The position numbers were made by a program, and so were the translations under genes. A DNA stretch of 32,000 nucleotides, from positions 480,001-512,000 of the forward strand of contig NZ_CP013011.1 in NCBI RefSeq assembly GCF_001412615.1, written 5' to 3'. The DNA is from Pyrodictium delaneyi (GTDB taxonomy: Archaea > Thermoproteota > Thermoprotei_A > Sulfolobales > Pyrodictiaceae). This document shows, in pieces, positions 1,914 through 19,532 of this stretch. Under the pieces are notes generated by a model. That model did not search any database, had not been told where the DNA came from, and saw only the letters and a list, made by a program, of their open reading frames with translations. Position 1 is the first letter of the stretch, and each line of letters starts with the position of its first letter.

Positions 1914-2579
1914 CTACCTTATTCTGACAAGCTTCCCTGACTCTATTCTATAGGCGTTAAAGCCCTCGAGGAGTTCTTCGGCACTCTTTTGCGGAGACGT
2001 CGCTACAACCGCCATACCACGGTGCAACAACTCCTCTAATAAGCCACGAAGCGCTTCAACCGCGTCATCGTCGAGTCCAGTAAACGGTTCATCTATAGCT
2101 AGTACCCTGGGACGGTGGAGGAGTGCACGCGCTATGTTAGCCCGCTTCTTCCAGCCGAAACTCAGTTCCCCTGCACGGGTGTCCAGGTAACGTCCAAGCC
2201 CTAGAATTTCCACAACCTCGTCCTCCTCGGGACGGTATTCTATACCATAGAGGCGGGCATAGTACTCAAGGTTCTCCCGGACGGTAAGCTCGTCATAGAG
2301 TAGACTATGATGAAGGACTACTCCCAGCACCCGGCGCGCTCCGGGGGTGTAGGGCGACTGTCCCGCGATGAGTACTTCTCCACGGCTGGGTCGGGCTAGT
2401 CCGACTAGTATACGCAGAAGTGTAGTCTTGCCCGAGCCGTTAGGCCCGGTAACCAGCACACCCCTTCCTGGCTCCACGCAGAGACCGACATCACATAATA
2501 CCCATCCACGGTTCCAGTCGTACCGTTTCCATACACCACGGGCCTCAAGCAGACAGGCAGCCACGGTATCCACCACCAC
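1914..2579 (-). CDS. ccmA: ABC transporter ATP-binding protein, haem-exporter CcmA-like
   Basis: Walker A GPNGSGKTTLLRIL, Walker B RVLAIDEPFTGLD, degenerate signature LSFGWKKR, and ccm context. The longest ORF starts at TTG 2747 and would overlap the upstream gene by 17 nt. The ATPase core begins near residue 66, so a GTG at 2573-2579 is the more likely start. The start is uncertain. Confidence 0.8.
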   Translation of the reverse strand: MVVDTVAACLLEARGVWKRYDWNRGWVLCDVGLCVEPGRGVLVTGPNGSGKTTLLRILVGLARPSRGEVLIAGQSPYTPGARRVLGVVLHHSLLYDELTVRENLEYYARLYGIEYRPEEDEVVEILGLGRYLDTRAGELSFGWKKRANIARALLHRPRVLAIDEPFTGLDDDAVEALRGLLEELLHRGMAVVATSPQKSAEELLEGFNAYRIESGKLVRIR

Positions 2580-2730
2580 TGAGCAAGCAGCCACGGTATC
2601 TTTCCACAGTGTACTGCGTAGGAGACTCTTCCCTAAAACAGCTGGGGCATAGGGCTCGTCTCTCAAATCACAAGCATCGAGGAGAAGAGAAAGGATGCAG
2701 CGACAAAAAGCGTAGACTAGACCTAGAGGG

Positions 2731-3369
2731 CTAACGGCGGCTAGCAACAGCCATAGCGATTACTAGGACGCCTACTGCTGCTAGGTATAGTGCCAGACCT
2801 ACTGGTAGACCTGTCTGTACAAGCGGCTCAGCTTCCTCAGAGGGGTTCGGCACCGGCACTTGCGGCAACTTCTGGTAGGTTACAGTTGGCTTCGGCTTCA
2901 CCGGTTGCTGCGTCTGGACAGGAACTGGCTTAGTGGTCGTAGTGGTAGGTGTCTCTGCCTCTGTAGTTGACGCCTCGGTTGGCTTCTCTTCCTGTGCCGG
3001 GGCGGCTCCACCACTCTTAGCCTCCTCAAACACCTTGGCAAAGTAGTCCTTGAGTTCAGGTGTTATCCCGGGCATGGCATTCATAAGTTCGTCCCACGTC
3101 TTAGCGTTGTTGAACATCTTGAAGTTAGGCGCCTCTGCTGCCACAGCCTCGTCAAGGCTCGCATACTTTGACGCCCACTCCTTAATCACCGCCACAGTAC
3201 CCTCGAAATCCGGCGCCATTGCCCCATTATGACAGCCAGTACAGCCCTTAGACTGAAACAGTTGCTTAGCCTCATCTGTGGTTAGTGCGGCTGCTACTGA
3301 CACTAGACCTACAGTTGCTAGTATTGCGAACATCACTATTGCCAGCGATACACGCATCTTCATGGACAT
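2731..3369 (-). CDS. monohaem class-I-like cytochrome c with Thr/Pro-rich linker and C-terminal membrane anchor
   Basis: Single CxxCH (LFQSKGCTGCH). N-terminal signal/TM MKMRVSLAIVMFAILATVGLVSVAAA. TTEAETPTTTTTKPVPVQ linker, then a C-terminal TM ending in RR. GGGGGA precedes the ATGs at 3369/3363. The ORF-track start at 3429 is probably too long. Confidence 0.8.
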   Translation of the reverse strand: MSMKMRVSLAIVMFAILATVGLVSVAAALTTDEAKQLFQSKGCTGCHNGAMAPDFEGTVAVIKEWASKYASLDEAVAAEAPNFKMFNNAKTWDELMNAMPGITPELKDYFAKVFEEAKSGGAAPAQEEKPTEASTTEAETPTTTTTKPVPVQTQQPVKPKPTVTYQKLPQVPVPNPSEEAEPLVQTGLPVGLALYLAAVGVLVIAMAVASRR

Positions 3370-3435
3370 CCCCCATTCATGCGTGCCTGTATTAACTTGA
3401 GTATTTAGAGTATTTAGAGCGCCTAGCACCGGTGA

Positions 3436-3442
3436 CTATATA
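3436..3442 (-). promoter_or_regulatory. TATA-like element (TATATAG on minus) upstream of the monohaem cytochrome c gene
   Basis: The reverse complement of 3436-3442 is TATATAG. It lies between the NrfD-like stop and the cytochrome c start, right after a T6 tract. Confidence 0.3.
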
Positions 3443-3480
3443 CATACGTACATGTTCTAGTTCTAAGAATCACATGATCT

Positions 3481-3501: not shown

Positions 3502-4758
3502 TCAATGATGTGCACCGCTACCCTTAAAGTAATGTGTCATTACAGCCTTAAGGGCAGGTCTTGCTAGCAATAAGTATATCAGTATGCCGATCGCATGTAC
3601 ACCAGCAGTTATGCCTATCTCCAGCGCCGTTGGATAGTATGGGTGTACTTCACCGAGTGTACCCGGCACAAACGCTGGTATGATTATCGTCATTGTTTTC
3701 TCTGCAACCACTGCCACTATTGTGATAACTGATACCAGGATTATGCCTTTCTTTGAGTTGTGTACACGCGGCAGTATGCCCAATATCACTGCTGCTATAC
3801 CTAGGCCTATCCAAAGCCACATCATCTTCGCCAGATATGGTAAGTGGTATCCCAGGAATAGCACCTGGGCTTGCGCTTTCTTCATGGGCTCAGTGGTATA
3901 CCAGAATATCTCATGGACTTCGCTGAGTGTGAAGTATAAGCCTACGACCAGAGAGCCCACGATCACATACAAGGTCTTCTTGTATACGCTAAAGTCCACT
4001 TTGAAGCCCTTCATATAGCGCTCTGCTAGGTACAGTGCCAGCAGCAGTATTGCAGGACCGCTTGCAAACGCGGTGGCAACGTAGCGGGGAGCAAGCAACG
4101 GGCTGTTCCATATAGGCCTCGCTGTCAGCGCCTGGGATATGAATGCTGTCACAGTATGTATACCTATGGCAAAGGGCGCTGCAATCGTTATGAAAGGTAC
4201 TATGAATTTCTTAGGCAATGGCTTGTCCTGTCTGTAATAGTGGACGGTTACTAGCATACCTATCAAGTTTAGCGTTAGGTAACCCGTTAGTACAATGAAG
4301 TCCCAGTCAAGCATTGAGCGTAGGTTTGGCAGCTGTGGCATCAATATCATAGCACGGAATGGACGGCCAATGTCGACAGTTATGAGCAGCAGCACTGTTA
4401 TGATTGCTGCTACTGCTTGCACTTCACCAAGCACTGCCACTTTTTTGAATTCCTTGTCGCCGAACACATAAGCCGCTATACCAAACACTATACCGGCAGC
4501 CGCTACTCCAACCCAGAATACGAAGAACGCTATGTAAATACCCCATGGCACACTATCACTTAAGTCAGTTAGTATTAGACCGCCTTCTTCCTTACCGAGA
4601 AATATTGGCGCATGCTGGACAAATATCCATAGATACATACCATAGAGCGCCACTATTAGCAAGCCTATTAATGCTAAGTAGTAGCGGCGGCCGCCGTTTA
4701 GTAGTGCTTCTCTGACGATGAATTTTATTGTATCTAGGAAGCTCCCATCCGCAGTCAT
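3502..4758 (-). CDS. NrfD/PsrC-family integral membrane quinol-interacting subunit
   Basis: About 418-aa polytopic membrane protein directly downstream of the Tat-exported FeS subunit. The stop of the upstream gene (TGA 4782-4784) overlaps the longest-ORF TTG at 4785. ATG 4758 is preceded by GGGGGTGA (4764-4771) with a 5-nt spacer. Architecture and context match the NrfD/polysulfide reductase family. Confidence 0.8.
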   Translation of the reverse strand: MTADGSFLDTIKFIVREALLNGGRRYYLALIGLLIVALYGMYLWIFVQHAPIFLGKEEGGLILTDLSDSVPWGIYIAFFVFWVGVAAAGIVFGIAAYVFGDKEFKKVAVLGEVQAVAAIITVLLLITVDIGRPFRAMILMPQLPNLRSMLDWDFIVLTGYLTLNLIGMLVTVHYYRQDKPLPKKFIVPFITIAAPFAIGIHTVTAFISQALTARPIWNSPLLAPRYVATAFASGPAILLLALYLAERYMKGFKVDFSVYKKTLYVIVGSLVVGLYFTLSEVHEIFWYTTEPMKKAQAQVLFLGYHLPYLAKMMWLWIGLGIAAVILGILPRVHNSKKGIILVSVITIVAVVAEKTMTIIIPAFVPGTLGEVHPYYPTALEIGITAGVHAIGILIYLLLARPALKAVMTHYFKGSGAHH

Positions 4759-4781
4759 CTGAGTCACCCCCGGCTTACCTG

Positions 4782-5813
4782 TCAATGTCCAGTTTCTCTC
4801 TCAGTTCCAGGCTCACGTGGAGGTGTACGCTTAGGCCCGAAGAAGTAGAAGAACCTGGGTCTTGTACCGGCTTCCGGCTTCAATACGAAAGCACCGTATT
4901 CCTCTATGACGCGGCGTATTGGGCTACTGGGATCGTGAAGGTCACCAAATACTCTTGCACCGACAGGACATACCTCGACACAAGCCGGCACGCCACCGTC
5001 GCGGGTGCGCTGTATACACCAGGTGCACTTCTCAACAACGTGTATTTGCCTCGGCACATTGCCTAGTATGTGCATGTTGGGGTTCAGTTCAGTTACAGGT
5101 ACGTATGGCTTAGCCCAGTTGAAGCGCCGTGCCCCGTAGGGGCAAGCAGTTATACAGTAACGACAACCAATACAACGGTCATAGTCCACTACTACTATGC
5201 CATCAGGCTCCTTCCATGTAGCCTTAACCGGACACACCATAGTACATGGCGGATCTTCGCAGTGCATACATGCTACTGGTACATACACCATGTTCGGCTT
5301 TGGCGCATCAGTGTAGTGCATGTTAGCGTAAACTATCTCCATTTCCTCTCTGGGTATTTCTAGTACCTTTATCCACTCTATACCCAGGTTCCTTGCCTGA
5401 TTGTTCTCCATGACGCATGCATAGGCGCAACGGCGACAGCCAATACACTTGTTCACATCAAGCGCCATCGCGAAACGCACGCCTTCGCGAGGACCAGTAG
5501 CCTTCACCTTTATCATGGCACAGCGCTTGCGTGCCTCTTTACAAGCCTCGGAGTCCTCACCCATACTGCTACAGATCTTTTCAGCCTCTGCTTGACACCA
5601 CTGCTTAAGCTTGGCTTCTCTTTCCTGGGCTCTTCTTTCAAGGGGGCTACCTGCTTCAGCAGCCTCCGCTATGAGATCCTCTACTCGTACTGGCACTAGC
5701 AGTTTCTTCAGCTCATCCCGGCTAACAGCAACAAATGATACTGCAGAGACGCCAGCCGCTACAGCAGCAACCTTGAGGAAGTCCCTCCTAGACTGGTTTA
5801 TGCGGCCCTCCAC
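4782..5813 (-). CDS. Tat-exported 4x[4Fe-4S] ferredoxin-type subunit (NrfC/PsrB/DsrO/ActB2-like)
   Basis: Twin-arginine signal QSRRDFLKVAAVAAG. Four cluster motifs: CIGCRRCAYAC, CMHCEDPPCTMVCP, CIGCRYCITACP, CTWC...CVEVCP. GTG start at 5813 is preceded by GGGGGTGA (5820-5827) with a 6-nt spacer. Confidence 0.9.
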   Translation of the reverse strand: MEGRINQSRRDFLKVAAVAAGVSAVSFVAVSRDELKKLLVPVRVEDLIAEAAEAGSPLERRAQEREAKLKQWCQAEAEKICSSMGEDSEACKEARKRCAMIKVKATGPREGVRFAMALDVNKCIGCRRCAYACVMENNQARNLGIEWIKVLEIPREEMEIVYANMHYTDAPKPNMVYVPVACMHCEDPPCTMVCPVKATWKEPDGIVVVDYDRCIGCRYCITACPYGARRFNWAKPYVPVTELNPNMHILGNVPRQIHVVEKCTWCIQRTRDGGVPACVEVCPVGARVFGDLHDPSSPIRRVIEEYGAFVLKPEAGTRPRFFYFFGPKRTPPREPGTERETGH

Positions 5814-5829
5814 TCCACTTCACCCCCTG

Positions 5830-6510
5830 TTACTCACGTGAATACCCTAGAGGGAGAACAAGAGCACCTATAGCTAGGATTAACCCGCCAATAACTGCTG
5901 CTATGGTACCGTAGGCCACGCTGGTCTCGTCAGGTGGTGCAGGCCTATTAGATGGGGGCGGCAGTATGCTCGCAGGTGGCATAGTCGGTTCATGAGGGTT
6001 ATGACATTCGACACATGCCTTAGCCGGTATTGTCTTGAGGTTCTTATACTCGGTGCAGAGGTGAAAGTCGTATCCGACGCCCTTATAGCCTATAACCTTT
6101 GTCACGTTGCCGTTGGGGCAAACATAGGTCTTGTTGCCATGTACTAGGTAGTTATAGTCGGTGACCTCGCGTGGATGGCATACAGCACATACCTTATTGG
6201 TCTCCTTGAGTTCTTGTGTACTGTGTAAGCCAGGTATGTAGACTTGAGCACCATTCACTAGATCTATCATTGTCGGTGCTATATGACAGTTTGAGCAGAA
6301 AAGGCCTCTGTGAGCACCCTTTGTGAGGTCGATACCGTGAAAAGGTACTGTCTTCCTATCGCCAGTTAGCTGCATCGTTTGATGACAGGTTGTACACGGA
6401 TAGAACTGGGCGGGGTCCTGGGCATGCGCTGTGACAGCTGAAAGTACTGGAACTATTATAGCAAGGGCTAGGGCTACTGCAGTCAATACTATGCGCGGAT
6501 TCCAACGCAT
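5830..6510 (-). CDS. tetrahaem c-type cytochrome, N-terminal signal peptide and C-terminal TM anchor
   Basis: Four CxxCH motifs (CTTCH, CSNCH, CAVCH, CVECH). Signal peptide MRWNPRIVLTAVALALAIIVPVLSAVTAHA. Pro-rich linker, then TM IAAVIGGLILAIGALVL. ATG 6510 is preceded by GGAGGTG. The ORF-track extension to 6645 lacks signal-peptide features. Confidence 0.85.
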   Translation of the reverse strand: MRWNPRIVLTAVALALAIIVPVLSAVTAHAQDPAQFYPCTTCHQTMQLTGDRKTVPFHGIDLTKGAHRGLFCSNCHIAPTMIDLVNGAQVYIPGLHSTQELKETNKVCAVCHPREVTDYNYLVHGNKTYVCPNGNVTKVIGYKGVGYDFHLCTEYKNLKTIPAKACVECHNPHEPTMPPASILPPPSNRPAPPDETSVAYGTIAAVIGGLILAIGALVLPLGYSRE

Positions 6511-6770: not shown

Positions 6771-7313
6771 TTAACTTTCAAGCCTGCCAGCTGGCGCCTG
6801 GTAACTCTCATGACAACCTTCGAGTATCTTATTCACCATCAACAGCGGGTACTCCTCCACTTTACCTGTAGCTGTATTCATTATAACCACATGCACTGAT
6901 GGTTCATAACGTCCCTCTACTACGACCCTACTAGAGACACTCGGGCTACCACCATAAAGGTTCTTGAACTCATTAGCACTATAGAGTGCTACTACGCGAA
7001 ATCCATCTTTCCCTTCTAATATGAATACAGCATAGCTATCATCGTTACCAAAAGGAGGCCCATCTACACGTTCCGCCACCCCATAGGAGCCGAAACCTTT
7101 CATTGAATATACCGTATCTCCTATCCGGAGCAGGTAGCTACTGCCAGCGAGATTTACCGGCGTACCACGAACAGTCACATATGCTTCGTAGTCTAGGCTC
7201 TTTAGACTAGACACATCCTTATAGTCGGACGACTTTATACTCATAAACCCTATTGCCAATAGTGCTGCGAACAGTATACCCGCAAACATTAATGATTTGC
7301 CAGTTTTAGCCAT
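6771..7313 (-). CDS. ccmE: haem chaperone CcmE, archaeal CxxxY variant
   Basis: N-terminal TM anchor, beta-rich (OB-like) body, and a C-terminal LEGCHESYQAP motif (Cys codon at 6813-6815) where bacterial CcmE has HxxxY. Sits between ccmC and the cytochrome genes. GGGGGT lies 7 nt upstream of the ATG. Confidence 0.8.
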   Translation of the reverse strand: MAKTGKSLMFAGILFAALLAIGFMSIKSSDYKDVSSLKSLDYEAYVTVRGTPVNLAGSSYLLRIGDTVYSMKGFGSYGVAERVDGPPFGNDDSYAVFILEGKDGFRVVALYSANEFKNLYGGSPSVSSRVVVEGRYEPSVHVVIMNTATGKVEEYPLLMVNKILEGCHESYQAPAGRLES

Positions 7314-7367: not shown

Positions 7368-8399
7368 TCACACACCTCTACCACGGCTGCGAGATGCATA
7401 TAGCATTAGGACTCCAAGCAACATTAAATATGCCGCTACATTGAGGGCTACACTCCAGTGTATAACTATTTCAACACTAGAGTCTCTTATCTTCACGAGG
7501 TGTCCTATTATTGCAGGCTCACCCTCAACTATCGGTACAGTGAGCGGCTTACTTAGCTCTACATAACCACTCTTAGATAGCATTAACGCGACAACTTCGC
7601 CGTTAGCTAGCTTCGCATCTACTACACGTTCGACTCCGCCACTAAGGTACGGATATACCATAATCAGTCCCACGACTATACCAGCTATAACAAAGACTAT
7701 TCCAGCATAGCGTAATATTCCAACATGAAGGGGCTTAGCATTCTCGTAGCGTTTTGCCATTATATACGCCAGCAGAATAGCTATCAATGATGCCATTACT
7801 ATACGTGTAACAAATATCCTTATGACCTCTGGCTGGGCCATAAAGTTACCAAACTGCTCCATTGTTGGGTGAAGGCTCGAAGCTACTAACCGCGGTGCAA
7901 GGAAGCTTACCGGAACCATAGAGTACGCCGCTACTGCATAGGCTGCACTTAACCTACTTGCACGATCTGGGTCAGGAATGCTTGAACGCAGCACAAAATA
8001 CAAGAGATATGCTAAGAGCAGAAGAAGTACCCCGGTCTCTCGGGGATCCCAGGACCATGCTGAACCCCAGGACTCGCTAGCCCATGCCATACCACTAACG
8101 AGTGTAAATATAGCGTAAGCGGTAGCTGTAGCTATGAACGCCTGTATATACGCATCAAGTTTCTCGCTGCCCCGGACAAGATACGCAATTGCTGTGATAA
8201 ATGCTAGCGTGTATAGAAGGTAGCTTCCCCATGCCATTGGTATATGTATATATATGTTGAGATATGCCGTCGGTGAGCCAAGGTTGACGCGTAGCGGATA
8301 TGGCGCTCTGAAAGCAGCATAGACCACTAGAAGCGCGTCAATAGCCGATAACACTAGAAGTAGGGGAACAATCGTTTTCTCCAGACCACGCTTTACCAT
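7368..8399 (-). CDS. ccmC: haem-handling protein CcmC with about 95-aa C-terminal extension
   Basis: WWD motif WGSAWSWDPRETG and polytopic topology. At 343 aa it is longer than typical CcmC (about 250 aa). The extension is a soluble beta-rich segment plus one extra TM. Confidence 0.85.
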   Translation of the reverse strand: MVKRGLEKTIVPLLLVLSAIDALLVVYAAFRAPYPLRVNLGSPTAYLNIYIHIPMAWGSYLLYTLAFITAIAYLVRGSEKLDAYIQAFIATATAYAIFTLVSGMAWASESWGSAWSWDPRETGVLLLLLAYLLYFVLRSSIPDPDRASRLSAAYAVAAYSMVPVSFLAPRLVASSLHPTMEQFGNFMAQPEVIRIFVTRIVMASLIAILLAYIMAKRYENAKPLHVGILRYAGIVFVIAGIVVGLIMVYPYLSGGVERVVDAKLANGEVVALMLSKSGYVELSKPLTVPIVEGEPAIIGHLVKIRDSSVEIVIHWSVALNVAAYLMLLGVLMLYASRSRGRGV

Positions 8400-11400: not shown

Positions 11401-11495
11401 GATGCAACACTAGCTGCTACTAGTAGACCCGCCACGAGTGGAGCTATGCCTGTGTAATGTATGGGCAGAGCCAAGACCATCAATCCTCCATCCAT
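8472..11495 (-). CDS. ccmF: cytochrome c haem lyase subunit CcmF with a greatly expanded extracytoplasmic domain
   Basis: WWD motif WGGYWAWDPVETSE and an N-terminal polytopic region of about 500 aa. This is followed by about 450 aa of non-membrane sequence rich in NxS/T sequons and one terminal TM. Total length is 1007 aa. Confidence 0.9.
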   Translation of the reverse strand: MDGGLMVLALPIHYTGIAPLVAGLLVAASVASAVAGRSRERLLRYGLAVAVAGWFVYVIPFVTLDYSLREAFWNTSPGLPLSMRIASAWAGGGGSLYLFAVIASAAGLYLLRIHRSRLFQAILGSLVLAALAGAFLNGAFALLPERPASGAGLNPLLKSPWLYPHPLSTFGGYALLAVAAAAMLTGEKRRSLVVYELGWALLTLGIMIGGYWSYETFGWGGYWAWDPVETSELMVWLVATTLPHFMVVVPSFVRYNAAWLLSSVFIAMYVTRTGLSPLHSFAAPGIGALLLLSAGVTPLVYGVYVLARNGEKIVSETARTLRERNLYKMGLFIAGMALLLSAIFVYGTLFLPSILSAVGVEASVPQMQSGVRYFHPVLYPLLVAMLAAIPLAFTGDKLGWKGYTALLLTTTIVSTVFALAAYKGVYILAPLSPPETNALMAFGVPWAVIAAASTLVYIAYRLWRSRSVLIVADRLTAVSLLHLGLAVTVLGVILSGTYAFNDKYTWYYELKPGDSISLPSGAKLTFEDFSYGISNSTVDIYTNYVGRSSTYVLAWNVLNFLKNDLAEFIKLYNQGKELFNSNKTVEWLFKVAKNSPIDLNTTVIATGNATVTLYDLENNGTMILARNQQVKIILDKALLRLDLNMDPNTGVISVDLLVGAANLTVELPAVIPIEQDKIGFHKYIEMRFTTPLRLRLGDVEVIAERIGLLPEALLLAGKGAPFIVNNSTITGSNAALYVYGYIKSPEAGKVKVPSQLSPAVAAYLIASLNPTTQKMFQSIEQSSLYQLLVNSTAIDRLVESPTCLKSQHGCFGYVDAPRLVPETAWLEVRLKIEHGDWSKTVNVRIRFEAYGEIQGIHGLVSKVIPIGLGLDDVYVVVSPPVVEGYIGGRVAYHELLVYYLHEAFKHLPPEKRLALAALMAAGYNVDVLNDGSLSVDERQQVEATLVDLYLLAENFGQTNSTIVKEGLHVQVKIIPGIRLVWIGPIIMALGAVYIAVVRIIAVKRHSR

Positions 11496-11530: not shown

Positions 11531-13090
11531 CTAGACGAGTTGAAGTGTATATAAAAGCAAGTACACACCCGCAACAACTAATACAAAGCCACCAATCCGC
11601 TGAAGTAATGTATAACGCCCCATCACCTTGTTTACTATGCTACTACCAAGCCGGCTCGCAGCATAGACTGCGAAAGCTAGTGGAACACTCACACCAAGGG
11701 CAAAGCTGACTGCCACAGCTATACTTGATACCAAGCTTCCTACTCCTACTACCAGTAGTAATGCTCCGGCCACCAACGGCAAACTGCATTGAACCGCTAA
11801 GAAACCATAAACGGCACAAAAGCCGACAAGACCACCACGCTTGATACCAACAACACCTTCTAGCTCTATGGGTATACCGAGAAGACTAGCAACACCTGCA
11901 GCAACTATTGCCGTCGCAACCGCTGGAAGGAGTATACTCTGGAGCGATGATGCAAGGCTAGAAGCAAGGACAAACAACAGTCCTATGGCTATGACGCCGG
12001 TAAAGGCCGCAATACCACATACTATACAGCTGGACGCGGAAATTTTTCTGCCAGAAGTTCCTGCTGCGCTTACATATGCCACCAGTAGAGGGAAAACACA
12101 CGGAGAAAATGTAGCTATAATACCGGCTACTAGCGCTGCTACGACGCCAACTAGGCTAGTACTTATTGCCCCACCGACGTCCAGAGCAGTATCGCCGTTA
12201 CCAGAATTCTGCTGAACACTAGCCGCAAGAGTAACATTAGTCAACGCCGCTATCGCTGGCGGCTCTCTATCCTCAAGCACCGCTGAAACATAGTCGAGAA
12301 GGTAGGCTAATCTGTCTATCTCATAAGATGATAGGTCTGGGACATATTTCCTCATAGACTTGACTGTATCGGATATTCCTCCATAGCTCCCATAGAGCTC
12401 GCGTAGTGTCATATTCTTCTCTAGAGCCTCGTTTAGTCTCCTCGCTAGGAGATCAGCCCTGGTATCGCGGGACTCGAGCCATGCCTGCAGCGAAGCTTTA
12501 TCCAGCCCACCTATCTTGCCATGACAAGCAGAGCAGCGGCTGTTAAAGATGCGCAGCCCTTCTTCTGCTAGCTTTTGGGGGTCAGACACACTGCTTAAAC
12601 CTACAGAGAACAATGCCCAGTTAAGCATTGTATCGGTAACATTCTCACCACCGAATGGACCTACGTGTCTTGCTACAGGCTCACCATCGACGAATACTAT
12701 GAATGTTGGCGTCTCCGTCACATGATATTTTCTAAAAGCCTCTTCAGTTGAAGGACCATAGACTATATGGAAGAAGCTGATAGGGAGGCTGTCGCTTCGA
12801 TACTCCAGCATAGCCCAGTAAGGGTGCATCTGCTTACACGTAGGACACGTAGGAGACTCAAACATTATTGCTATAGGCTTTTTTGAATCAAGTATCTTCT
12901 CTAACATAGCCGAGCTTGATATAGCGTATTCGTCGACCCTCATGTAGTAAGTAGCCAAATTTTGCTCCCAAGTGAAGAGGATAGTCGAGAATAACACTCC
13001 GACTACTAGTAACGCCACCAGCAGTACTCCAGCCCTCTTGGTCTTTTGGAAGCCATGGATGTCTAAGCGCATTCTACTAGAGTTCTGCAT
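11531..13090 (-). CDS. fusion protein: TM anchor + thioredoxin-like (CcmG/ResA-like) + cytochrome c-like CxxCH domain + CcdA/DsbD-type thiol transporter
   Basis: CPTC at residues 82-85 with a cis-Pro TPTF. EEGLRIFNSRCSACHG at residues 176-191. C-terminal polytopic domain with FSPCVFPL and AVQCSLPL, the CcdA signature cysteines. Confidence 0.8.
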   Translation of the reverse strand: MQNSSRMRLDIHGFQKTKRAGVLLVALLVVGVLFSTILFTWEQNLATYYMRVDEYAISSSAMLEKILDSKKPIAIMFESPTCPTCKQMHPYWAMLEYRSDSLPISFFHIVYGPSTEEAFRKYHVTETPTFIVFVDGEPVARHVGPFGGENVTDTMLNWALFSVGLSSVSDPQKLAEEGLRIFNSRCSACHGKIGGLDKASLQAWLESRDTRADLLARRLNEALEKNMTLRELYGSYGGISDTVKSMRKYVPDLSSYEIDRLAYLLDYVSAVLEDREPPAIAALTNVTLAASVQQNSGNGDTALDVGGAISTSLVGVVAALVAGIIATFSPCVFPLLVAYVSAAGTSGRKISASSCIVCGIAAFTGVIAIGLLFVLASSLASSLQSILLPAVATAIVAAGVASLLGIPIELEGVVGIKRGGLVGFCAVYGFLAVQCSLPLVAGALLLVVGVGSLVSSIAVAVSFALGVSVPLAFAVYAASRLGSSIVNKVMGRYTLLQRIGGFVLVVAGVYLLLYTLQLV

Positions 13091-13233: not shown

Positions 13234-13905
13234 TTACACAGCCTCCAGGATATAGCGAGAAAGCCAAACAGTCACCCCAGTAAATGCCAGGGCCGCTAAG
13301 ACAAGCCATACAACCTCTAACACCCCTATATTACCACCCAGAAGTGCAGCCACTATGCTAGGTGCTGCGGACTGCACATAGGGAAGCACGAGGACAAGCA
13401 CCATTACGGGCATCAATACTGCACGGGCCTCACTAAACACTAATATAGCTGAAGTAAAGCTAGATACAGCTGCAAGATACATACTTGACACAATAATCAA
13501 CATAAGTACTACTGGACTAAACATAACCCCTATTTGGGCAAAGAAGCCCAACGACATTATAAAGACAAGTGCTTGCATTGTTATAACTGCAAAACTATAG
13601 ACAAACTTTGCAAGGAATATAACCTCTGCACCTACTGGAGCCAATCGGAGTCCATCAAGTGTACCGCGATCAGCTTCTCTGACAAAGCTAGAAAGACTTC
13701 CAAATACGGCAAGGAATATGAGAACAAGAACGAGAGAAACACTGGCAGCAGCAGCATTTACTCCAGCAACACCTTTCATAACATATGCTGTGAGGACACC
13801 GGCAGCTAACGAGAATACTAGCATGGACCCCGCTTCAACTCTACGACGCAGATCTAGCAAGATATCTCTGCGTACAATAGCCGCTATTGCCCTTATACCG
13901 CTCAT
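13234..13905 (-). CDS. ccmB: haem exporter membrane subunit CcmB
   Basis: About 224-aa, six-TM hydrophobic protein in ccm context. ATG 13905 is preceded by GGGGGAGGT. The ORF-track start at 13989 adds 28 unlikely residues. Confidence 0.8.
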   Translation of the reverse strand: MSGIRAIAAIVRRDILLDLRRRVEAGSMLVFSLAAGVLTAYVMKGVAGVNAAAASVSLVLVLIFLAVFGSLSSFVREADRGTLDGLRLAPVGAEVIFLAKFVYSFAVITMQALVFIMSLGFFAQIGVMFSPVVLMLIIVSSMYLAAVSSFTSAILVFSEARAVLMPVMVLVLVLPYVQSAAPSIVAALLGGNIGVLEVVWLVLAALAFTGVTVWLSRYILEAV

Positions 13906-14101
13906 GACCTCCCCCAATCTTCCAGCGTCTCTAAGCCCCTTAATCACTACGCCTCGAGATCGCCAAAAAGCCAGCCAAATTACGAACACACTACACCATT
14001 ACACATAAAGACTGATAATCAATACTAGGACCAAGGACTAACATGTTACACCGAAGACGCGCTACCAAGAGAGTCAAAAAGGCTAAGAAGGATGATAAGT
14101 C

Positions 14102-15052
14102 CTAGGTTACAGTTGCCTCAGCAGCCTCCTCGATTCCAGCCCCAGTTTTAGCACGTTCCTCTACACGATGCCTAGAGCTGAGACGTTCCTCCACAATACT
14201 TGTTTGCCGATTACCATACAATGCCCTTCCAACTATGTAGTGTGGCAGCTCGTGACGCACAAATGCGTCAATTATCTTAGCTTCAGCCCTACGAAGGAGT
14301 TCTGCAAGAGTTGATACCGAGAGCCCTAGTTTTGATGCAAGTCCTTTTAGACTGATCCGGCGCGGAAAGCTATAGTAGCCCATGAGATAAGCATAGATTA
14401 TAGCAAGCTCCTGCTTCTCAGTAAGCATATAATCATACTCATCTATACCATGGCTGTGAATAGGCTTACAACCCCAACGGCGTAGTTCTTCATAAGTACT
14501 ACCACGAGCTACAATGAATTCATAGAGGGCCCCCATCGGAGTTACTACTACAGATTTAGCCATTGAACCAAGTGGTGTAGATATAAGCGGACACTTATTA
14601 CAAGGCGTAGATAATAAGCATCTATGGCATTTACTTTTCGGTATAATAATACGCACAACCTTATTGAATTTGTTCGAATACACTTGCTGGAAGTAAATCT
14701 CCTTAGCTAAGCGTAGTTGTTTATCAAAATTATCTACGAGAACTTTGTCACCACTGACTCTAACCCAAATTTCCGTATAATTATCGTCATATAAGTTGAC
14801 TCTTAGAATACGCAGAGCTAGCCTCGTTGCTCCATCCCCGCCTAAAATACCATCGACACTCATCTTGGAGCCATCATTCCCATGCAGACGTCGCACATTA
14901 GACGAAACATAGGCAGCCTTAACTACATCGTAAAGCGGACAATCCAATTCACGTAGACAGTATACCACAGATGATTTGTGAGACAAGTTATACACCCCAA
15001 AGAGGAACCGCCATAGTAATACACCACCACACTCCGGCGTAGGTGGTGTCAA
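14102..15052 (-). CDS. HTH_10 (bacterio-opsin activator-type) transcriptional regulator with a CxxC-x5-CxxC motif
   Basis: C-terminal LTEKQELAIIYAYLMGYYSFPRRISLKGLASKLGLSVSTLAELLRRAEAKII matches the Bat-type HTH. Central KCHRCLLSTPCNKCP at 14591-14629. The longest ORF starts with TTG and the true start is uncertain (ATG at residue 64 is possible). Confidence 0.6.
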   Translation of the reverse strand: MTPPTPECGGVLLWRFLFGVYNLSHKSSVVYCLRELDCPLYDVVKAAYVSSNVRRLHGNDGSKMSVDGILGGDGATRLALRILRVNLYDDNYTEIWVRVSGDKVLVDNFDKQLRLAKEIYFQQVYSNKFNKVVRIIIPKSKCHRCLLSTPCNKCPLISTPLGSMAKSVVVTPMGALYEFIVARGSTYEELRRWGCKPIHSHGIDEYDYMLTEKQELAIIYAYLMGYYSFPRRISLKGLASKLGLSVSTLAELLRRAEAKIIDAFVRHELPHYIVGRALYGNRQTSIVEERLSSRHRVEERAKTGAGIEEAAEATVT

Positions 15053-15158: not shown

Positions 15159-16742
15159 TTAAGTTATATATCGTTTACTAACAATCACTATACTAAACAT
15201 CGCGCCGAAACCTAAGCCAATTAGAAACCATAATATTTGCTCATAACGATCTGCTATTAGTTGCGCATTCCCATAAGAACCAGAAGAATTAATATCTTTT
15301 ATAGCTATTTGTTTAATTCTTGACTTATTTAAATATATATCTGACTTACCATGCTGTGCAACACCATTTTCTGGAAATTCTTTATTTTCTATGCCGGCTG
15401 TTACATTTAACTTTCCATGTTGTTGCACTGTGTAATTGACAAGCTCTCTAGAAGGACATCCAGTTAAGTTAGTCATAGTCTTCATATCTACGCTAAGACT
15501 ACTTATATCTATTAAAGGCCATGTACTACTTTTAGTGCTAGCTGCTATAAGCACACGACCAACCAGAGCTTCTAGAGTCTCTCTACAAGGAGATTGTAAT
15601 TCTTCAACCATCATTTTTATAACGTCCAACAAGCTTATAGAATCCTTAAGTCCAGTCGTAATTGATAGGTTGTATAACCTCCTTACAGTATCAATATAAA
15701 CATCTCTATCACAGGCCTGTATACCTGCATACCATAATGCAGCATTAACTCGCATCCAAACACTGTATTGTTCATCTACATCCAACATGTCATTAAGATA
15801 ATTAACAGCTAGTCTATACAAGCGGGGATTATTATCGTGGAGAGCTTTCATAGCCAGAAACTCTGCAGCCGCTTCCTGAAAGCTAAAATCACCATACAAC
15901 ATACCATGGTTAAACCATCCATGTGATGTCTCGTGCGCCGCCGTATGGACAAGCCAAGGAAGTATATCCTCAGCATATGAGCTTAATTTCATGTATACTA
16001 TACTGCCCATGCTATGCGCTGTATTTGGTGGCAGAAAGCTATGTTCTTCTGGTCCTACAATCACGAGAACGCAAGGCGAGCGTGGACTCGGACCAAGCCA
16101 TTTAGTTAAGGTGGAGCGCACTATTAGTAAGCTTTCCACGGCATACTTGACAACATTTTCTGGTATATTGCGCTGCATAATCACAGTCAAGTTTTCTTCT
16201 ATATAGTCATTAATATCATATATTCTTCTGTTGGCCAAGACTATTCCGTCAAATATGTAGTATCTGGCGAAAGATTCGAGATCCACTCTGTAAGGGCCCC
16301 CGGCTGGCCCGTAGCTGCGCCAGTCCATACTACTTCTAACCATATAGTTATCAGGAACATGTATCGTTATAAGTAGAGTTTTGTTTCCACTACTGCCAGC
16401 AAGGATCTGTATCTCAGAGATAATTTGCGGACATACTTTATCCAGTACATAGTAGAGGGGGGCCACTATAAGATCGCGAGATACACTCCTAGTTTGTAAA
16501 TAATACACGTTAGGGCCTAGTAAACCAGAACAGTTTATGCTGGAATCATGCCCCTCTAATGTTATAGAAACGCGCCAGACATCGCTGCTTACGGGCTCTT
16601 TAAATACTATTATAAGGTTATATTGCTGAACTGTATCCGTCTTATCGGTGAGATTGGATACTCCAGCTATAGCAATGGAACTCGTAAGAATAATAATTGC
16701 CGCAAAACTTGTCACAGTATAGCATAGCCAACACGAAGCCAT
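15159..16742 (-). CDS. membrane-anchored extracellular gluzincin (peptidase M1-like) protein
   Basis: HETSHGWFNH...FQEAAAEF resembles the M1 HExxH-x18-E region (HELAHQWFGN...WLNEGFA). No clear GxMEN motif. N-terminal signal/TM and a C-terminal TM ending KRYIT. Many NxS/T sequons. The gene is markedly AT-rich. Confidence 0.55.
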   Translation of the reverse strand: MASCWLCYTVTSFAAIIILTSSIAIAGVSNLTDKTDTVQQYNLIIVFKEPVSSDVWRVSITLEGHDSSINCSGLLGPNVYYLQTRSVSRDLIVAPLYYVLDKVCPQIISEIQILAGSSGNKTLLITIHVPDNYMVRSSMDWRSYGPAGGPYRVDLESFARYYIFDGIVLANRRIYDINDYIEENLTVIMQRNIPENVVKYAVESLLIVRSTLTKWLGPSPRSPCVLVIVGPEEHSFLPPNTAHSMGSIVYMKLSSYAEDILPWLVHTAAHETSHGWFNHGMLYGDFSFQEAAAEFLAMKALHDNNPRLYRLAVNYLNDMLDVDEQYSVWMRVNAALWYAGIQACDRDVYIDTVRRLYNLSITTGLKDSISLLDVIKMMVEELQSPCRETLEALVGRVLIAASTKSSTWPLIDISSLSVDMKTMTNLTGCPSRELVNYTVQQHGKLNVTAGIENKEFPENGVAQHGKSDIYLNKSRIKQIAIKDINSSGSYGNAQLIADRYEQILWFLIGLGFGAMFSIVIVSKRYIT

Positions 16743-16883: not shown

Positions 16884-16889
16884 AAAAAA
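16884..16889 (-). terminator. oligo-T (T6) tract after the octahaem cytochrome gene
   Basis: Plus-strand AAAAAA at 16884-16889 gives CTATTTTTTACC on the minus strand, about 45 nt past the stop at 16933. It sits inside a CTTAGG...CCTAAG inverted repeat. Confidence 0.35.
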
Positions 16890-16932
16890 TAGTTAGGCTT
16901 GAAATTGACCCTAAGTGTTAAGCTCACAACTA

Positions 16933-19482
16933 TTAGCTCCGGCGGTAGACTATTGATAGGCCTAGGGCTATTACTGCAGCAGCTAGCGCTATAGCGCCTA
17001 GCGTGTAAGCTGTCGATGATACACTGTCTATCTTGCTGCTTAACTCATCGATCTTCTTGCTTATCTCCTCTATCATGCTTATAGCTTGGCCTGCCTTATT
17101 GCTTGCCTCTTCAGCCTTCATGCTCGCCTCTTCTGCCTTAGCATTTGCTGTCTCAGCCTTCTGTCCTATAGTCTGTAGCTGTCCCGCCACCTGCTGTATC
17201 TCGGATACTAGCTTCTGTATCTCCTTGGCCTGTGGACTTAGTGCCTCTAGCTGTTTGCTCAGCTCTTGCAACTGCTGCAATAGTGTGTTAACATCAGTCT
17301 TTAGCGAGCCAACGTCACCTTCTATAGCTGAATAGCCGGTCTCTAGGCTCTGTAGCTGGCTCTTTAGCACCGGTACCTGGGCCTCTAGAGCTGCTAGCTG
17401 CGCCTTGAGGCTCTCTAGTTCGCGCTGTAGTTGTGCTATCTGTGCAGCTAGCTCAGGCGTGTACGGAGCACCAGCAGCTGCCTGCTTTAGTGCCTGTAGC
17501 TCAGTTTCTATCTGCTTTATCTTTAGTGCCGTGTAGAGGTAGCTGGTCATTCTACCTAGCTTGTCCATTACCGTATCTACTATACCGAACCAGTGGGCGA
17601 AGTCTGGACCCATCATGTAGACGCCATTCCTCCAGCGGCGACCCTCATGATGCCATATGTAGTACCACATTATCTCCATGTACTCGTCAAGTATGTTCTT
17701 GTTATCGTGTATGCCCTCCTTCCACGCTAGCTGTAGTAGCGCGTTCGCGAACCTGGCTACTATGTCGTAGTCTATCATGTTCTGGTCGGCAGTACGGAAG
17801 AAGTTCTCGGTCCACTGGCTGCTGTGACATAGCTTACATACTGCCTCCATCTCGGCACGGTGCTTGGCTAGCTCGCCAGTGTACTCTACCTTTAGTAGTC
17901 TCGGGAACTTGGTCTCGCCTATCTTGCCACCATCCTCTACTATCTTTATGCCGGTGAATACCGGGTACTTGTATGGCTCTGGTGCCTTGTCGTTCTTCTT
18001 AGCCTCTATGTCCTCTAGCTTGCCCTTTAGCTGGCTCCAGCCGTAGAATAGTGCTTGCTGCATCTTGTCGGGTATTATGCCCTTAGGTATGCTGAAGAAG
18101 TGCATCTGGTCCCATACTAGCCTCTTCACAAGGTCGTGGGTACCGGGCACTAATATGTTGCCGTTAGCATCGGCTAGAGCACTCATGTGACATGTAGCAC
18201 ATGTTGGCGCATTGAAGTCTACACCAACACGCCATGGTATCTGATCCCAGTTCCAGTCCTTACCGTATACGTCCCATATGTTGCCGTGCTTGCTCTCCTC
18301 GTAGATCTCTATGTGTGGATGGTCGTAACCTAGGTGGCACTGACCACATGTCCATGGCTCGCGTGCCTGCTTTATGCTGAATAAATGTCTTGGGTGGCAT
18401 GCAGTACAAGTGCCAAGGCTGCCGTCTGGGTCTAGACGAGCTGCACCATTGTTAGGCCAGCCCCATAGGGCTACTCTATTGACTTGCATACCATTGATTG
18501 TCACAGTCTCCTTCTTATAGGGTACTACGACTGTACCGTGACATTCGAAGCATGCATGATATATGTACCCGTTTCTGAACGATGGGTGCTCCATCACGTT
18601 ACTTATTGCTTTACTGTTACCATCTATGGACGTTACTGCTATCTTTATACCCATCTTGTTAAGAAGTGTTGTATTTAGTACACCACTTGCAGGCCATAGC
18701 GGGCTTATAAATGTCTTCCAGTCATAATCATAGGGCGTTACCATGCCAGTTGCCTCTTTGAGCATCTTTACTATGTCATTCTCCTGGCCAGTCTCCATGT
18801 ACTGCATTATGGCCTTTGCTATCTCCTTGTAGAAGTTCCAGTTTATGTCATCTACGTCACGCTGCTTAGTTAGGTATGGTGGGAAGTACTTCTCGTAGAG
18901 GGCCTTAGCCTGGGCATCGCCGAATGGGTCTGCGCCCTGGCTCTTAGCCCACTTTAGTATGCCCAGATACCATGGCTTAAATGGTGACATGACGCTGCCT
19001 GTTGCGTGCCATGTCCAGCTTATCTCTGCGCTCTCCTTGGGGTGACACTGGCTACAGTCCTTCCTTGTAACTATGGTTACTATCTTGTAGCCGAAGTGGT
19101 TTTCTATGACGTCAGGCCTGTCAGCTTCCTTAAACATACCGTGACACTCGTAACAGCCTATTACGTAGTTGTAGTTCTTGAACTTGTCAGCTATCTTGTC
19201 GGCCCATTCTGGGGTGCCTATAGCCTTGTAGAGGTCTGCTAGCGCTGCAGGGGTCATCTCGGCATGCTTGCTGTTAGCCCAGTCATACACTATGCCCGGT
19301 GTATACTGTATGTGACAGCTTAGACATGCCTTGGTCTGCGGGCTTACGACATCACTCTTCATTAGTTCTTGAACCTTAGCTGCTAGGTCGTCGCCGAACT
19401 GGGCTGCATGAGCAGGTGCTGCTATGCCTGCTACTAGGAGGAAGGATAGGACTAGGATACCGGCTAGTAGGAAGCGCTTCAT
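16933..19482 (-). CDS. octahaem c-type cytochrome, hydroxylamine oxidoreductase (HAO)-family-like, with C-terminal coiled-coil stalk and TM anchor
   Basis: Eight CxxCH motifs (CLSCH, CYECH, CSQCH, CFECH, CTACH, CGQCH, CATCH, CKLCH). The block GTCTACHPRHLFSIKQAREPWTCGQCHLGYDHPHIEIYEESKHG matches my memory of the HAO family. Signal peptide MKRFLLAGILVLSFLLVAGIAAPAHA follows GGAGGG. The last 198 aa are about 172 aa of heptad-like Q/L/E/K-rich sequence plus a TM ending YRRS. Confidence 0.85.
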   Translation of the reverse strand: MKRFLLAGILVLSFLLVAGIAAPAHAAQFGDDLAAKVQELMKSDVVSPQTKACLSCHIQYTPGIVYDWANSKHAEMTPAALADLYKAIGTPEWADKIADKFKNYNYVIGCYECHGMFKEADRPDVIENHFGYKIVTIVTRKDCSQCHPKESAEISWTWHATGSVMSPFKPWYLGILKWAKSQGADPFGDAQAKALYEKYFPPYLTKQRDVDDINWNFYKEIAKAIMQYMETGQENDIVKMLKEATGMVTPYDYDWKTFISPLWPASGVLNTTLLNKMGIKIAVTSIDGNSKAISNVMEHPSFRNGYIYHACFECHGTVVVPYKKETVTINGMQVNRVALWGWPNNGAARLDPDGSLGTCTACHPRHLFSIKQAREPWTCGQCHLGYDHPHIEIYEESKHGNIWDVYGKDWNWDQIPWRVGVDFNAPTCATCHMSALADANGNILVPGTHDLVKRLVWDQMHFFSIPKGIIPDKMQQALFYGWSQLKGKLEDIEAKKNDKAPEPYKYPVFTGIKIVEDGGKIGETKFPRLLKVEYTGELAKHRAEMEAVCKLCHSSQWTENFFRTADQNMIDYDIVARFANALLQLAWKEGIHDNKNILDEYMEIMWYYIWHHEGRRWRNGVYMMGPDFAHWFGIVDTVMDKLGRMTSYLYTALKIKQIETELQALKQAAAGAPYTPELAAQIAQLQRELESLKAQLAALEAQVPVLKSQLQSLETGYSAIEGDVGSLKTDVNTLLQQLQELSKQLEALSPQAKEIQKLVSEIQQVAGQLQTIGQKAETANAKAEEASMKAEEASNKAGQAISMIEEISKKIDELSSKIDSVSSTAYTLGAIALAAAVIALGLSIVYRRS

Positions 19483-19532
19483 GATCGGCATACCCTCCAC
19501 ACACCCTTATTTTTAGCCGTGATAGTCAATAT

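Follow-up and report, generated by a model that had tools for sequence, protein, structure and literature searches.

Which acceptor do the c-type cytochromes of the hyperthermophilic archaeon Pyrodictium delaneyi strain Su06 serve, and by what route are they fed? We approached this question through a window of 32,000 nucleotides (contig NZ_CP013011.1, positions 480,001 to 512,000; coordinates below count from its first letter), in which 13 open reading frames (ORFs) run from 19500 down to 1914, all on the minus strand and separated by 16–190 nt or small overlaps. Three proteins of the window match P. delaneyi entries exactly (ALL00533, ALL00537 and ALL00545, the last being Pyrde_0495) and assign it to Su06. 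The island comprises Pyrde_0484 to Pyrde_0496 (numbering as in the supplement of PMC8105010), in the order octahaem cytochrome c, M1-like protein, HTH_10 regulator, ccmB, thioredoxin (Trx)/cytochrome c/CcdA fusion, ccmF, ccmC, ccmE, tetrahaem cytochrome c, iron–sulfur (FeS) protein, NrfD-type membrane subunit, anchored monohaem cytochrome c and ccmA. A first-pass annotation, made from the sequence alone, had given the island this gene content, order and strand; our ORF list and Pfam matches agree, with motifs or models identifying ccmE and the M1-like gene. Its counts of eight, four and one CxxCH motifs for the octahaem, tetrahaem and anchored monohaem recur in our motif scan, which adds one motif in the Trx/cytochrome c/CcdA fusion.

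Our answer is that this would be the main c-type cytochrome locus of Su06, combining a four-gene quinol:cytochrome c oxidoreductase and an octahaem with maturation genes, a regulator and an ectoprotease. We read it as a quinol-fed, extracytoplasmic cytochrome c chain that ends at a stalked HAO-type reductase for a small oxidized substrate, a reading that we rate a little short of probable. The family identity of the parts, their outward topology, their expression and their conserved linkage are backed by data; all of the electron-transfer steps we infer.

An HAO-family octahaem on a long stalk

Pfam, a profile search of the PDB and the predicted fold all put the octahaem, Pyrde_0496 (16933..19500, minus strand; start probably M4, at 19491), in the HAO family, as the first-pass annotation had proposed, and not outside the HAO/ONR families. 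Its match to PF13447 scores 74.5 bits against a cut-off of 21.9. The best PDB match is 4QO5, the octahaem IhOCC of Ignicoccus hospitalis (4.9e-79 from the sequence alone and 4e-172 from a profile of 64 sequences), followed in the profile search by Kustc0458 (HAOr), NeHAO, HOX and HDH at 1e-25 to 2e-40; every significant match of the head among PDB sequences is to HAO, HDH, HAOr or IhOCC. An AlphaFold model of residues 1–660 (pLDDT 90.1, pTM 0.88) returned 11 Foldseek matches at E ≤ 0.001, every one of them HAO-family, with 4QO5 at a TM-score of 0.74, 6H5L at 0.56 and 1FGJ (NeHAO) at 0.53, and no NrfA, ONR, OTR or MccA structure was among these matches.

The protein consists of a Sec signal, a head of ~650 aa with the eight CxxCH motifs (at aa 59, 116, 149, 317, 365, 385, 434 and 555), a coiled-coil stalk of ~181 aa and a C-terminal transmembrane (TM) anchor. 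Eight motifs in 855 aa lie well above chance (rough expectation well below 0.01 per protein), and all 24 of their cysteines and histidines are invariant among 64 homologues. Relative to 4QO5, there are ~110 extra residues between haems 3 and 4. The motif scan found no CxxCK haem site in the octahaem.

At the active site, the Asp267-His268 pair of NeHAO falls exactly on D393-H394 in the profile alignment. D393 is invariant and His394 is present in 55 of the 64 sequences. No tyrosine in the C-terminal region is invariant among the 64 homologues; the column of the candidate cross-link loop (628) holds S, A, F or Y, in a region whose alignment to NeHAO 467–510 is not significant. An Asp-His pair kept without a conserved cross-link tyrosine suggests, as far as the alignment goes, an enzyme of reductase type. 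The octahaem HAO fold and the Asp-His pair recur in reductive enzymes without the tyrosine cross-link, the Kuenenia HAOr Kustc0458 (6H5L, the second-best structural match) and epsilonproteobacterial Hao, and the apparent lack of a conserved cross-link tyrosine would be a further likeness. Cross-link-free HAOr turns nitrite into NO (work cited in PMC9250108), and epsilonproteobacterial Hao makes ammonium from nitrite in vitro. The likeness goes only so far: structural-alignment identity to these reductive enzymes is just 14–17%, Kustc0458 pairs with the dihaem Kustc0457, and neither Kustc0458 nor epsilonproteobacterial Hao has the stalk and anchor or the linked FeS-NrfD module of Pyrde_0496.

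The octahaem alignment divides into two signature types. The 'DH / MWYYIWHHxGRRWR' type comprises Pyrde_0496, its counterparts in Hyperthermus (78%), Pyrolobus (65%) and Pyrofollis (56%), a 638-aa I. hospitalis protein (P0051; 809 bits and 56% identity to Pyrde_0496 over the head) and many shorter homologues. The 'DV / LWVESWLFY' type is IhOCC-like, with Asp-Val at the active-site pair. P0051, which carries both the DH and the MWYYIWHH signatures, is distinct from 4QO5 (274 bits between them; 4QO5 gives 270 bits against Pyrde_0496). IhOCC is therefore not the closest I. hospitalis relative of Pyrde_0496, and its active-site signature differs (Asp-Val and LWVESWLFY versus Asp-His and MWYYIWHH). 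From its position seven genes upstream of the NiFe hydrogenase, we take P0051 to be Igni_1359, the second of the octahaems purified by Nass et al. (PMC4429474). Pyrde_0496 appears to be orthologous to Igni_1359, its type being sister to that of IhOCC, and it shares the HAO-family octahaem fold and haem count of both. Both Ignicoccus octahaems are abundant and partly membrane-associated. Compared to Pyrde_0496, with its 181-aa stalk and anchor, the orthologue in I. hospitalis ends in a tail of just 26 aa that lacks a TM anchor, and the Ignicoccus octahaem genes have no linked NrfD module, ccm, M1-like or HTH_10 genes. In the locus fetched around it (L001, at 18024–21301), this orthologue lies ~6 kb upstream of the genes for the small and large subunits of the NiFe hydrogenase.

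The stalk and anchor together span aa ~650–855 (window 16933–17500), and the 181-aa stalk shows a strong 3.5-residue hydrophobic periodicity and many matches to coiled-coil families. Calculated as an alpha-helical coiled coil at ~0.15 nm per residue, it would hold the octahaem head ~27 nm above the membrane. Its length follows lineage: 164–203 aa in Pyrodictiaceae-type proteins, 100–129 aa in those of the Thermodiscus type and other Desulfurococcales metagenome-assembled genomes (MAGs), 32–34 aa in one Ignicoccus-like group, and 22–29 aa in the I. hospitalis group, whose proteins lack the anchor. The stalk length classes look matched to cell-envelope architecture. The quasi-periplasm of Pyrolobus fumarii, a relative of P. 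delaneyi, is 40 nm wide (PMC3156397).

The tetrahaem-FeS-NrfD-monohaem module

The candidate electron supply to this head is encoded by four genes, all on the minus strand. The tetrahaem cytochrome, Pyrde_0488 (5830..6510), has a signal peptide, four CxxCH motifs and only a short Pro-rich linker ahead of its C-terminal TM anchor. Its start is probably M46 (6510), behind GGAGGTG, and its matches are weak ones to Cytochrome_C7, NapC or MtrC-like proteins. The named members among its 42 homologues are all Pyrodictiaceae or Desulfurococcales; no Ignicoccus protein is named among the 42, and we claim no homology to the purified I. hospitalis tetrahaem Igni_0530. The Tat-exported 4x[4Fe-4S] subunit, Pyrde_0487 (4782..5813, 343 aa), matches Fer4_11 and has four Cys motifs; its TAT signal scores 22.1 bits against a cut-off of 22.7, with RRDFLK visible. 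Its Tat signal is separated from the first ferredoxin motif by a charged, helical-looking extension of ~70 aa (aa ~35–105, window 5500–5813) with four extra cysteines (CQAEAEKIC...C...C). The NrfD-family integral membrane subunit, Pyrde_0486 (3502..4785), which would interact with quinone, matches Pfam NrfD at 4e-38 and has 10 predicted TM helices. Pyrde_0485 (2731..3429, true start probably near 3369) is a class-I-like monohaem cytochrome c with weak cytochrome c family matches only. A signal peptide precedes its haem domain (~100 aa), which a Thr/Pro-rich linker of ~68 aa joins to a C-terminal TM anchor; 7 orthologues share this tethered architecture. The tetrahaem, FeS and NrfD genes are closely packed, with a 4-nt overlap between FeS and NrfD and a Shine-Dalgarno-like GGGGGTGA ahead of the FeS gene.

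The haem proteins all have a signal peptide and a C-terminal anchor and the FeS protein has a Tat signal. This topology supports the earlier proposal that the components are extracytoplasmic and could form a chain from quinol to octahaem. In P. fumarii, the monohaem domain is duplicated in tandem (2 CxxCH) on the same Thr-rich tether and anchor (13059–13859 of locus L021). Kletzin et al. 2015 placed a 'bc1-complex cytochrome c homologue' in an unidentified complex, and this dihaem protein may be the one they meant.

The first-pass annotation had called the system Nrf-like. That description holds for the broad Pfam NrfD match, but sequence scores bring both subunits, FeS and NrfD, nearer to DsrO/DsrP and alternative complex III (ACIII) than to NrfC/NrfD. 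In NCBIfam, the FeS subunit reaches 194.9 bits with DsrO (cut-off 200, 1.4e-57) and 123.2 bits with NrfC TIGR03149 (cut-off 377.6), and the NrfD subunit 238.5 bits with DsrP (cut-off 350, 1.4e-70); NrfB (PRK11659) gives 23.5 bits against a cut-off of 184, and there is weaker similarity to QrcC, QrcD and HmcB/C. PDB matches of the FeS subunit are ArrB (6CZ7), PsrB (2VPW) and ACIII ActB (6F0K), the last a strong match but confined to the C-terminal FeS part (6F0K_B residues 797–1023). The NrfD subunit matches only ACIII ActC (6F0K_C, 6BTM_C), weakly (8.5e-6). The module is within the broad NrfCD/PsrBC/DsrOP/ActBC superfamily and falls outside Nrf, Dsr and ACIII proper.

Functionally, and by analogy, the module most resembles a stripped-down ACIII. 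Both follow the same cofactor logic of multihaem cytochrome c, four-cluster FeS protein, 10-TM NrfD-type protein and tethered monohaem cytochrome c, with the island's anchored monohaem as the analogue of ActE. ACIII also has a molybdopterin-like ActB1 domain, ActF alongside ActC, ActD and a pentahaem ActA, whereas the island has no such domain, a single NrfD-type protein, no ActD and a tetrahaem. DsrJOP likewise combines a membrane-anchored multihaem cytochrome c with DsrO and DsrP, whose families are the best curated matches of the island subunits, but these scores stay below the equivalog cut-offs and DsrM, DsrK and DsrJ of DsrMKJOP have no counterpart among the 13 island ORFs. DsrJ is a trihaem protein, and it is absent from the NCBIfam matches of the tetrahaem. 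With E. coli NrfABCD the island shares the idea of a quinol-fed periplasmic multihaem reductase supplied through FeS, NrfD-family and small multihaem cytochrome subunits. It lacks the pentahaem, CxxCK-containing NrfA, its NrfC and NrfB scores are far below the equivalog cut-offs, and its NrfD subunit has 10 predicted TM helices compared to 8 in NrfD proper.

Is the octahaem connected to this module? We mapped the 13 window proteins by tblastn on loci fetched around octahaem and tetrahaem homologues. The order tetrahaem-FeS-NrfD-monohaem is invariant in every genome where the module was seen, while the octahaem gene moves around it. In Hyperthermus butylicus the octahaem and M1-like genes stand directly before the module, with no intervening ccm genes; two Thermodiscus-type contigs have the octahaem directly after the monohaem; another MAG places Trx/CcdA and ccmF between monohaem and octahaem; and at one further locus the module is convergent to the octahaem gene, beside an HTH_10 gene. 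Pyrodictium MAGs keep the order of P. delaneyi, and Pyrofollis has the same gene set with the octahaem 13 locus tags from the tetrahaem. Because the linkage is kept through these rearrangements, it argues for a functional connection between octahaem and four-gene module, as the first-pass annotation had supposed, yet one without obligate linkage. We also considered a general HAO-NrfD pairing beyond the Desulfurococcales and rejected it, since three more distant 'DH'-type homologues, from two archaeal contigs and a Phycisphaerales genome, have no such module beside them.

Two further observations concern these loci. The H. butylicus FeS gene (L003, 15087–16098) is split into two frames with 206-aa and 154-aa products, which may be a frameshift/pseudogene or a sequencing error; if real, the module may be inactive there despite an intact octahaem. 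Near the cluster in Hyperthermus (L003, 1–2870) and Pyrofollis (L022, 539–6655), though not in the P. delaneyi window, there is a molybdopterin oxidoreductase (~1240–1280 aa) together with two ferredoxin-like proteins.

Published proteomic data bear on how these genes are used. In the tandem mass tag (TMT) table of PMC8105010, octahaem intensities are 3158–7298 in all eight samples, compared to 294–2002 for thermosome subunits, 450–3555 for EF-1alpha, 3509–8300 for the Nap nitrate reductase Pyrde_1154 and 29–742 for Pyrde_0486-0488 (NrfD, FeS and tetrahaem), although TMT intensities are only a rough guide to abundance across different proteins. Pyrde_0489, 0491, 0492 and 0494 were detected, and Pyrde_0490 and 0495 have no values. 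Most products are thus co-detected on nitrate and ferrihydrite, in keeping with the co-expression expected of a respiratory cluster. The octahaem is constitutive on both acceptors, and monohaem Pyrde_0485 is ~3-fold up on ferrihydrite.

Transcription signals, which we read directly from the intergenic sequence, fit this uneven picture. A TATA-like element, TAAAAATAA (19507..19515, minus strand), lies just 5' of the octahaem start and would be the promoter of a near-leaderless transcript. A T6 run ~45 nt past the octahaem stop codon (16884..16889, minus strand) is a possible archaeal terminator parting the octahaem from the M1-like gene, a placement consistent with the very abundant octahaem and the lack of a proteome value for Pyrde_0495. 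There is also a T-run 3' of the M1-like gene, and a T6 run plus a TATATA element between the NrfD and monohaem genes. Taken with proteins of unequal abundance and a monohaem under its own regulation, these signals point to several transcription units and not to one 17.6-kb operon.

The first-pass annotation knew of no characterized archaeal system of this composition, which overstates the case. Kashyap & Holden 2021 described Pyrde_0485-0496 as a putative membrane respiratory complex, grouping the octahaem with Pyrde_0485, 0488 and 0492 and the 'sulfur reductase'-like Pyrde_0486 and 0487 (PMC8105010). They found the octahaem in haem-stained bands of nitrate- and ferrihydrite-grown cells and among the most abundant proteins, with most cluster proteins present on both acceptors. 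HAO-like octahaems of I. hospitalis were purified by Nass et al. (PMC4429474), and IhOCC was crystallized as a nitrite-reducing enzyme (PMC4429474, PMC9250108); PMC9250108 treats it as an octahaem nitrite reductase of the HAO/HDH clade without P460 haem. The cluster itself is already in print and its parts are of known kinds. What is new here is the pairing of a DH-type octahaem with an ACIII-like module, the long lineage-specific stalk and the tethered monohaem, none of which our literature search found described.

A proposed reductase for small molecules, weighed against other routes

In the chain that we propose, the NrfD subunit would oxidize methylmenaquinol, and electrons would reach the tetrahaem, sited at the membrane surface, by way of the FeS clusters. 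From there the monohaem on its tether would ferry them over the wide quasi-periplasmic space to the octahaem head, which is presumably a trimer. There, a five-coordinate, substrate-accessible haem 4 would reduce a small oxidized substrate. By analogy with the in vitro activities of IhOCC and other cross-link-free HAO-type enzymes, the substrate reduced would most likely be nitrite, hydroxylamine or NO, and we hold this choice of substrate with less confidence than the chain as a whole. Our preference for these substrates stems from the Asp-His pocket, the absence of any conserved tyrosine for the cross-link, the structural closeness to Kustc0458, the activity reported for IhOCC and the lack of another candidate nitrite reductase. 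Denitrification as far as N2 has been reported for Su06, and Demey et al. 2017 found strain Hulk to be without an obvious nitrite reductase gene and unable to use nitrite (PMC5556600). The NO reductase of P. delaneyi is raised on nitrate (PMC8105010). Our literature search turned up no nitrite reductase identified for the denitrifier P. delaneyi or for P. fumarii, which reduces nitrate to ammonia. The octahaem would supply this otherwise missing nitrite-reducing step in P. delaneyi; its production is constitutive, and a role confined to nitrate respiration is improbable.

Several results weigh against this proposal. The octahaem is equally abundant without nitrate, and its ~ten-fold excess over the membrane module by TMT is a poor fit to a fixed 1:1 complex. 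The monohaem is regulated unlike the other subunits. Absence of the cross-link rests on non-conservation, and the alignment to NeHAO Tyr467 is weak. This octahaem type, moreover, occurs as close orthologues in sulfur reducers not known to respire nitrite, hydroxylamine or Fe(III) (H. butylicus 78%, Ignicoccus 56%), and strain Hulk has the P. delaneyi-type octahaem without growing on nitrite (PMC5556600). In Ignicoccus the octahaem stands alone, apart from the NrfD module, no octahaem lies within 10 kb of the four-gene operon of P. fumarii (Pyrfu_1102), and more distant homologues of the same signature type are unlinked to the module.

It is tempting to ask, given a head raised so far from the membrane, whether the octahaem is instead a wire or surface reductase, with the stalk lifting the head (24 haems if trimeric) to the S-layer, where acceptors would be ferrihydrite or, in relatives, elemental sulfur. 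We consider this unlikely. Ferrihydrite reduction by P. delaneyi needs direct contact (PMC8105010), the stalk measures ~27 nm against the 40 nm quasi-periplasm of Pyrolobus, and monohaem levels rise ~3-fold on ferrihydrite. Stalk lengths are lineage-specific, with nearly no stalk in I. hospitalis, which is not known to have an S-layer, and the organisms that carry this octahaem type have insoluble sulfur or iron reduction as their common trait. Most HAO-family clades have no known function, and some members outside the nitrogen cycle have been proposed, speculatively, to reduce sulfur species (PMC9213671). However, the octahaem is not raised on ferrihydrite, and the model of PMC8105010 gives iron reduction to Pyrde_0784-0787 and two strongly induced molybdopterin enzymes, with no role for Pyrde_0485-0496. 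Su06 does not reduce sulfur (PMC8105010), the conserved Asp-His pocket points to small-molecule catalysis, and 27 nm may fall short of the S-layer. A more ambitious version, which we regard as a long shot, would make the stalked octahaem, the ACIII-like module and the tethered monohaem an envelope-spanning device of hyperthermophilic Desulfurococcales that reaches ~27 nm toward sulfur or Fe(III) oxide at the S-layer. If this is true, the HAO family would gain its first member whose physiological role lies beyond the nitrogen cycle, and archaea a new way of passing electrons out of the cell, with stalks fitted in length to the envelope.

The island could also reflect co-location only, with cytochrome c genes kept near the genes for their maturation and the four-gene complex and the octahaem serving separate pathways, which we find rather improbable. 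The ccm, regulator and protease genes do lie between the two parts, whose abundance and regulation are unlike and for which the sequence suggests separate promoters and terminators. The parts are unlinked in Pyrolobus and Ignicoccus, and for another tetrahaem, Igni_0530 of I. hospitalis, a role as sulfur reductase was suggested by Kletzin et al. Nevertheless, the octahaem sits directly beside the module, with no intervening ccm, in H. butylicus and the Thermodiscus MAGs, and a linkage that persists through at least four gene arrangements would scarcely be expected unless co-inheritance or co-regulation were selected for.

Reverse flow, in which the octahaem would gather outside electrons (from a Tat-exported uptake hydrogenase or a reduced nitrogen or sulfur compound) and pass them through monohaem, tetrahaem, FeS and NrfD to menaquinone, is the least probable reading and a poor prospect: it would resemble Qrc, Tmc or Hmc of Desulfovibrio (hence the interest of the weaker QrcC, QrcD and HmcB/C similarity) or HAO-c554-cM552 of nitrifiers, and it draws on hydrogen as obligate donor (PMC8105010), on the I. 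hospitalis orthologue's place 6 kb from NiFe hydrogenase genes and on the in vitro reduction of Igni_0955 and, less well, Igni_1359 by native hydrogenase (PMC4429474), but the P. delaneyi hydrogenase is modelled as giving electrons directly to methylmenaquinone (PMC8105010), no tyrosine is conserved for the cross-link that is the hallmark of oxidizing HAO/HDH, and reaching low-potential menaquinone via c-type haems demands a low-potential donor.

The small-molecule reductase chain that we prefer is worth pursuing for several reasons. HAO-family octahaems are widespread in organisms without a nitrogen-cycle lifestyle (PMC9213671). The Pyrodictiaceae octahaem is among the most abundant proteins of its cell and easy to purify, the organism is culturable, and the cluster lays out a concrete, testable sequence of quinol, ACIII-like module, tethered cytochrome c and stalked HAO-type reductase. 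If correct, this chain would show how a membrane is wired to a distant catalytic site across a 30–40 nm quasi-periplasm in a cell living at ~100 °C, and whether the ancestral cross-link-free HAO type acts on nitrogen, sulfur or mineral acceptors. If the octahaem is instead a general detoxifier of nitrite or hydroxylamine, the result would be a modest extension of what is known of IhOCC.

Maturation genes, regulator, protease and flanks

Attachment of this many haems is served by a maturation set within the island, all on the minus strand. The archaeal variant of System I is defined by CcmA, B, C and F, a CxxxY CcmE and no CcmH (Allen et al. 2006, as cited in PMC5556600 and PMC4429474). Here CcmA, B, C and F have Pfam matches, a CxxxY CcmE and a Trx-CcdA fusion are present, and Pfam found no CcmH among island ORFs of at least 150 aa. 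The CcmA-like ABC ATPase, Pyrde_0484 (1914..2747), matches ABC_tran at 1.4e-26, and its homologues align from ~aa 55–66. Like this ORF, those of the tetrahaem, the monohaem and the HTH_10 regulator are too long at the 5' end. The CcmB-like ABC-2 permease (haem export; 13234..13989) scores 27.8 bits with CcmB against a cut-off of 24.9, also matches ABC2_membrane and has six hydrophobic segments. The CcmC-like haem-handling protein (7368..8399; Cytochrom_C_asm 2.9e-25) has homologues at three of the fetched loci (L009, L011 and L022).

The haem lyase CcmF (8472..11495, 1007 aa) matches Cytochrom_C_asm at 2e-18 and CcmF_C at 1.6e-9, with full-length homologues at L005, L014 and L022. At the C terminus it is extended by ~440 extracytoplasmic residues and a last TM helix (aa ~530–1007, window 8472–9900), an extension that might replace the missing CcmH/CcmI function. 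The fusion protein Pyrde_0492 (11531..13090) combines an N-terminal TM helix, a thioredoxin domain (CPTC; 1e-8 to 1e-9), a monohaem cytochrome c domain (CSACH; Cytochrome_CBB3 at a weak 3.5e-4) and a 6-TM CcdA/DsbD-like domain, for which NCBIfam alone gives a weak DsbD-like match, TsoB, over aa 305–512. Full-length homologues occur at L005, L009 and L014, and the strain Hulk orthologue was named a CcdA-superfamily protein (PMC5556600). The fusion is presumed to be the thiol-reduction arm of cytochrome c maturation.

The CcmE haem chaperone of archaeal type (6771..7313) adjoins ccmC. It has no Pfam match even at E ≤ 10, and its PDB sequence matches contain no CcmE, only chance matches to galectins. 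We keep the assignment because of the CxxxY motif, the topology (a TM helix at aa 8–26) and the gene context; the C-terminal GCHxSY is invariant (C167, H168, S170, Y171) and corresponds to the archaeal CxxxY motif, a variant described by Allen et al. 2006 (as cited in PMC5556600).

The HTH_10 transcription regulator, Pyrde_0494 (14102..15052, minus strand; HTH_10 1.5e-17), occurs with the cluster at seven loci (L004, L005, L007, L008, L009, L013 and L020). It contains CHRC...CNKC, but in seven homologues only C145 and C154 are invariant. We therefore ruled out a NarO-like Cys4 redox sensor; from these two positions, a two-Cys redox switch is possible.

Next to the octahaem is a putative membrane-anchored, extracytoplasmic metalloprotease of M1-like (gluzincin) fold, Pyrde_0495 (15159..16742, minus strand). 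It has no Pfam match even at E ≤ 10 and no NCBIfam match. Its zinc-site residues, HExxH at aa 270–274 with E290 and E294, are invariant, and all top Foldseek matches of its AlphaFold model (pLDDT 80) are M1 aminopeptidases (E ~1e-8, TM-score ~0.4). The M1-like fold is present, yet aminopeptidase activity is doubtful from the sequence: GxMEN was not seen, and the region reads HSMGS. With GxMEN absent and the zinc site kept, the protein is maybe an endopeptidase. The family has only 16 homologues, in Pyrodictiaceae-type genomes, and the gene adjoins that of the octahaem at L003-L008. With a protease anchored outside the cell and encoded beside a stalked octahaem, it is tempting to speculate that it cleaves the stalk to free a soluble head, which we offer as an idea only. 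In Ignicoccus, the octahaems were seen in soluble as well as membrane form.

A TrpB-like gene unrelated to the island (309–1661) extends the same minus-strand run, so strand bias does not mark the island edge. The flanks are housekeeping genes (TrpB-like, SDR, aconitase X, UbiD, CLP1, eIF2-alpha and tRNA-Leu), and the island therefore ends where the first-pass annotation had placed its limits. No mobile-element genes were seen among the family matches of the window; repeats and att sites were not searched. The G+C content at third codon positions is 0.33–0.38 in ccmB, the HTH_10 gene and the M1-like gene (13234–16742), compared to 0.57 in the octahaem and 0.52–0.62 in the flanks, which may be due to low expression or a different origin. 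Outside the island, tRNA-Leu (CAG) at 22108–22195 on the plus strand is the sole RNA gene detected in the window.

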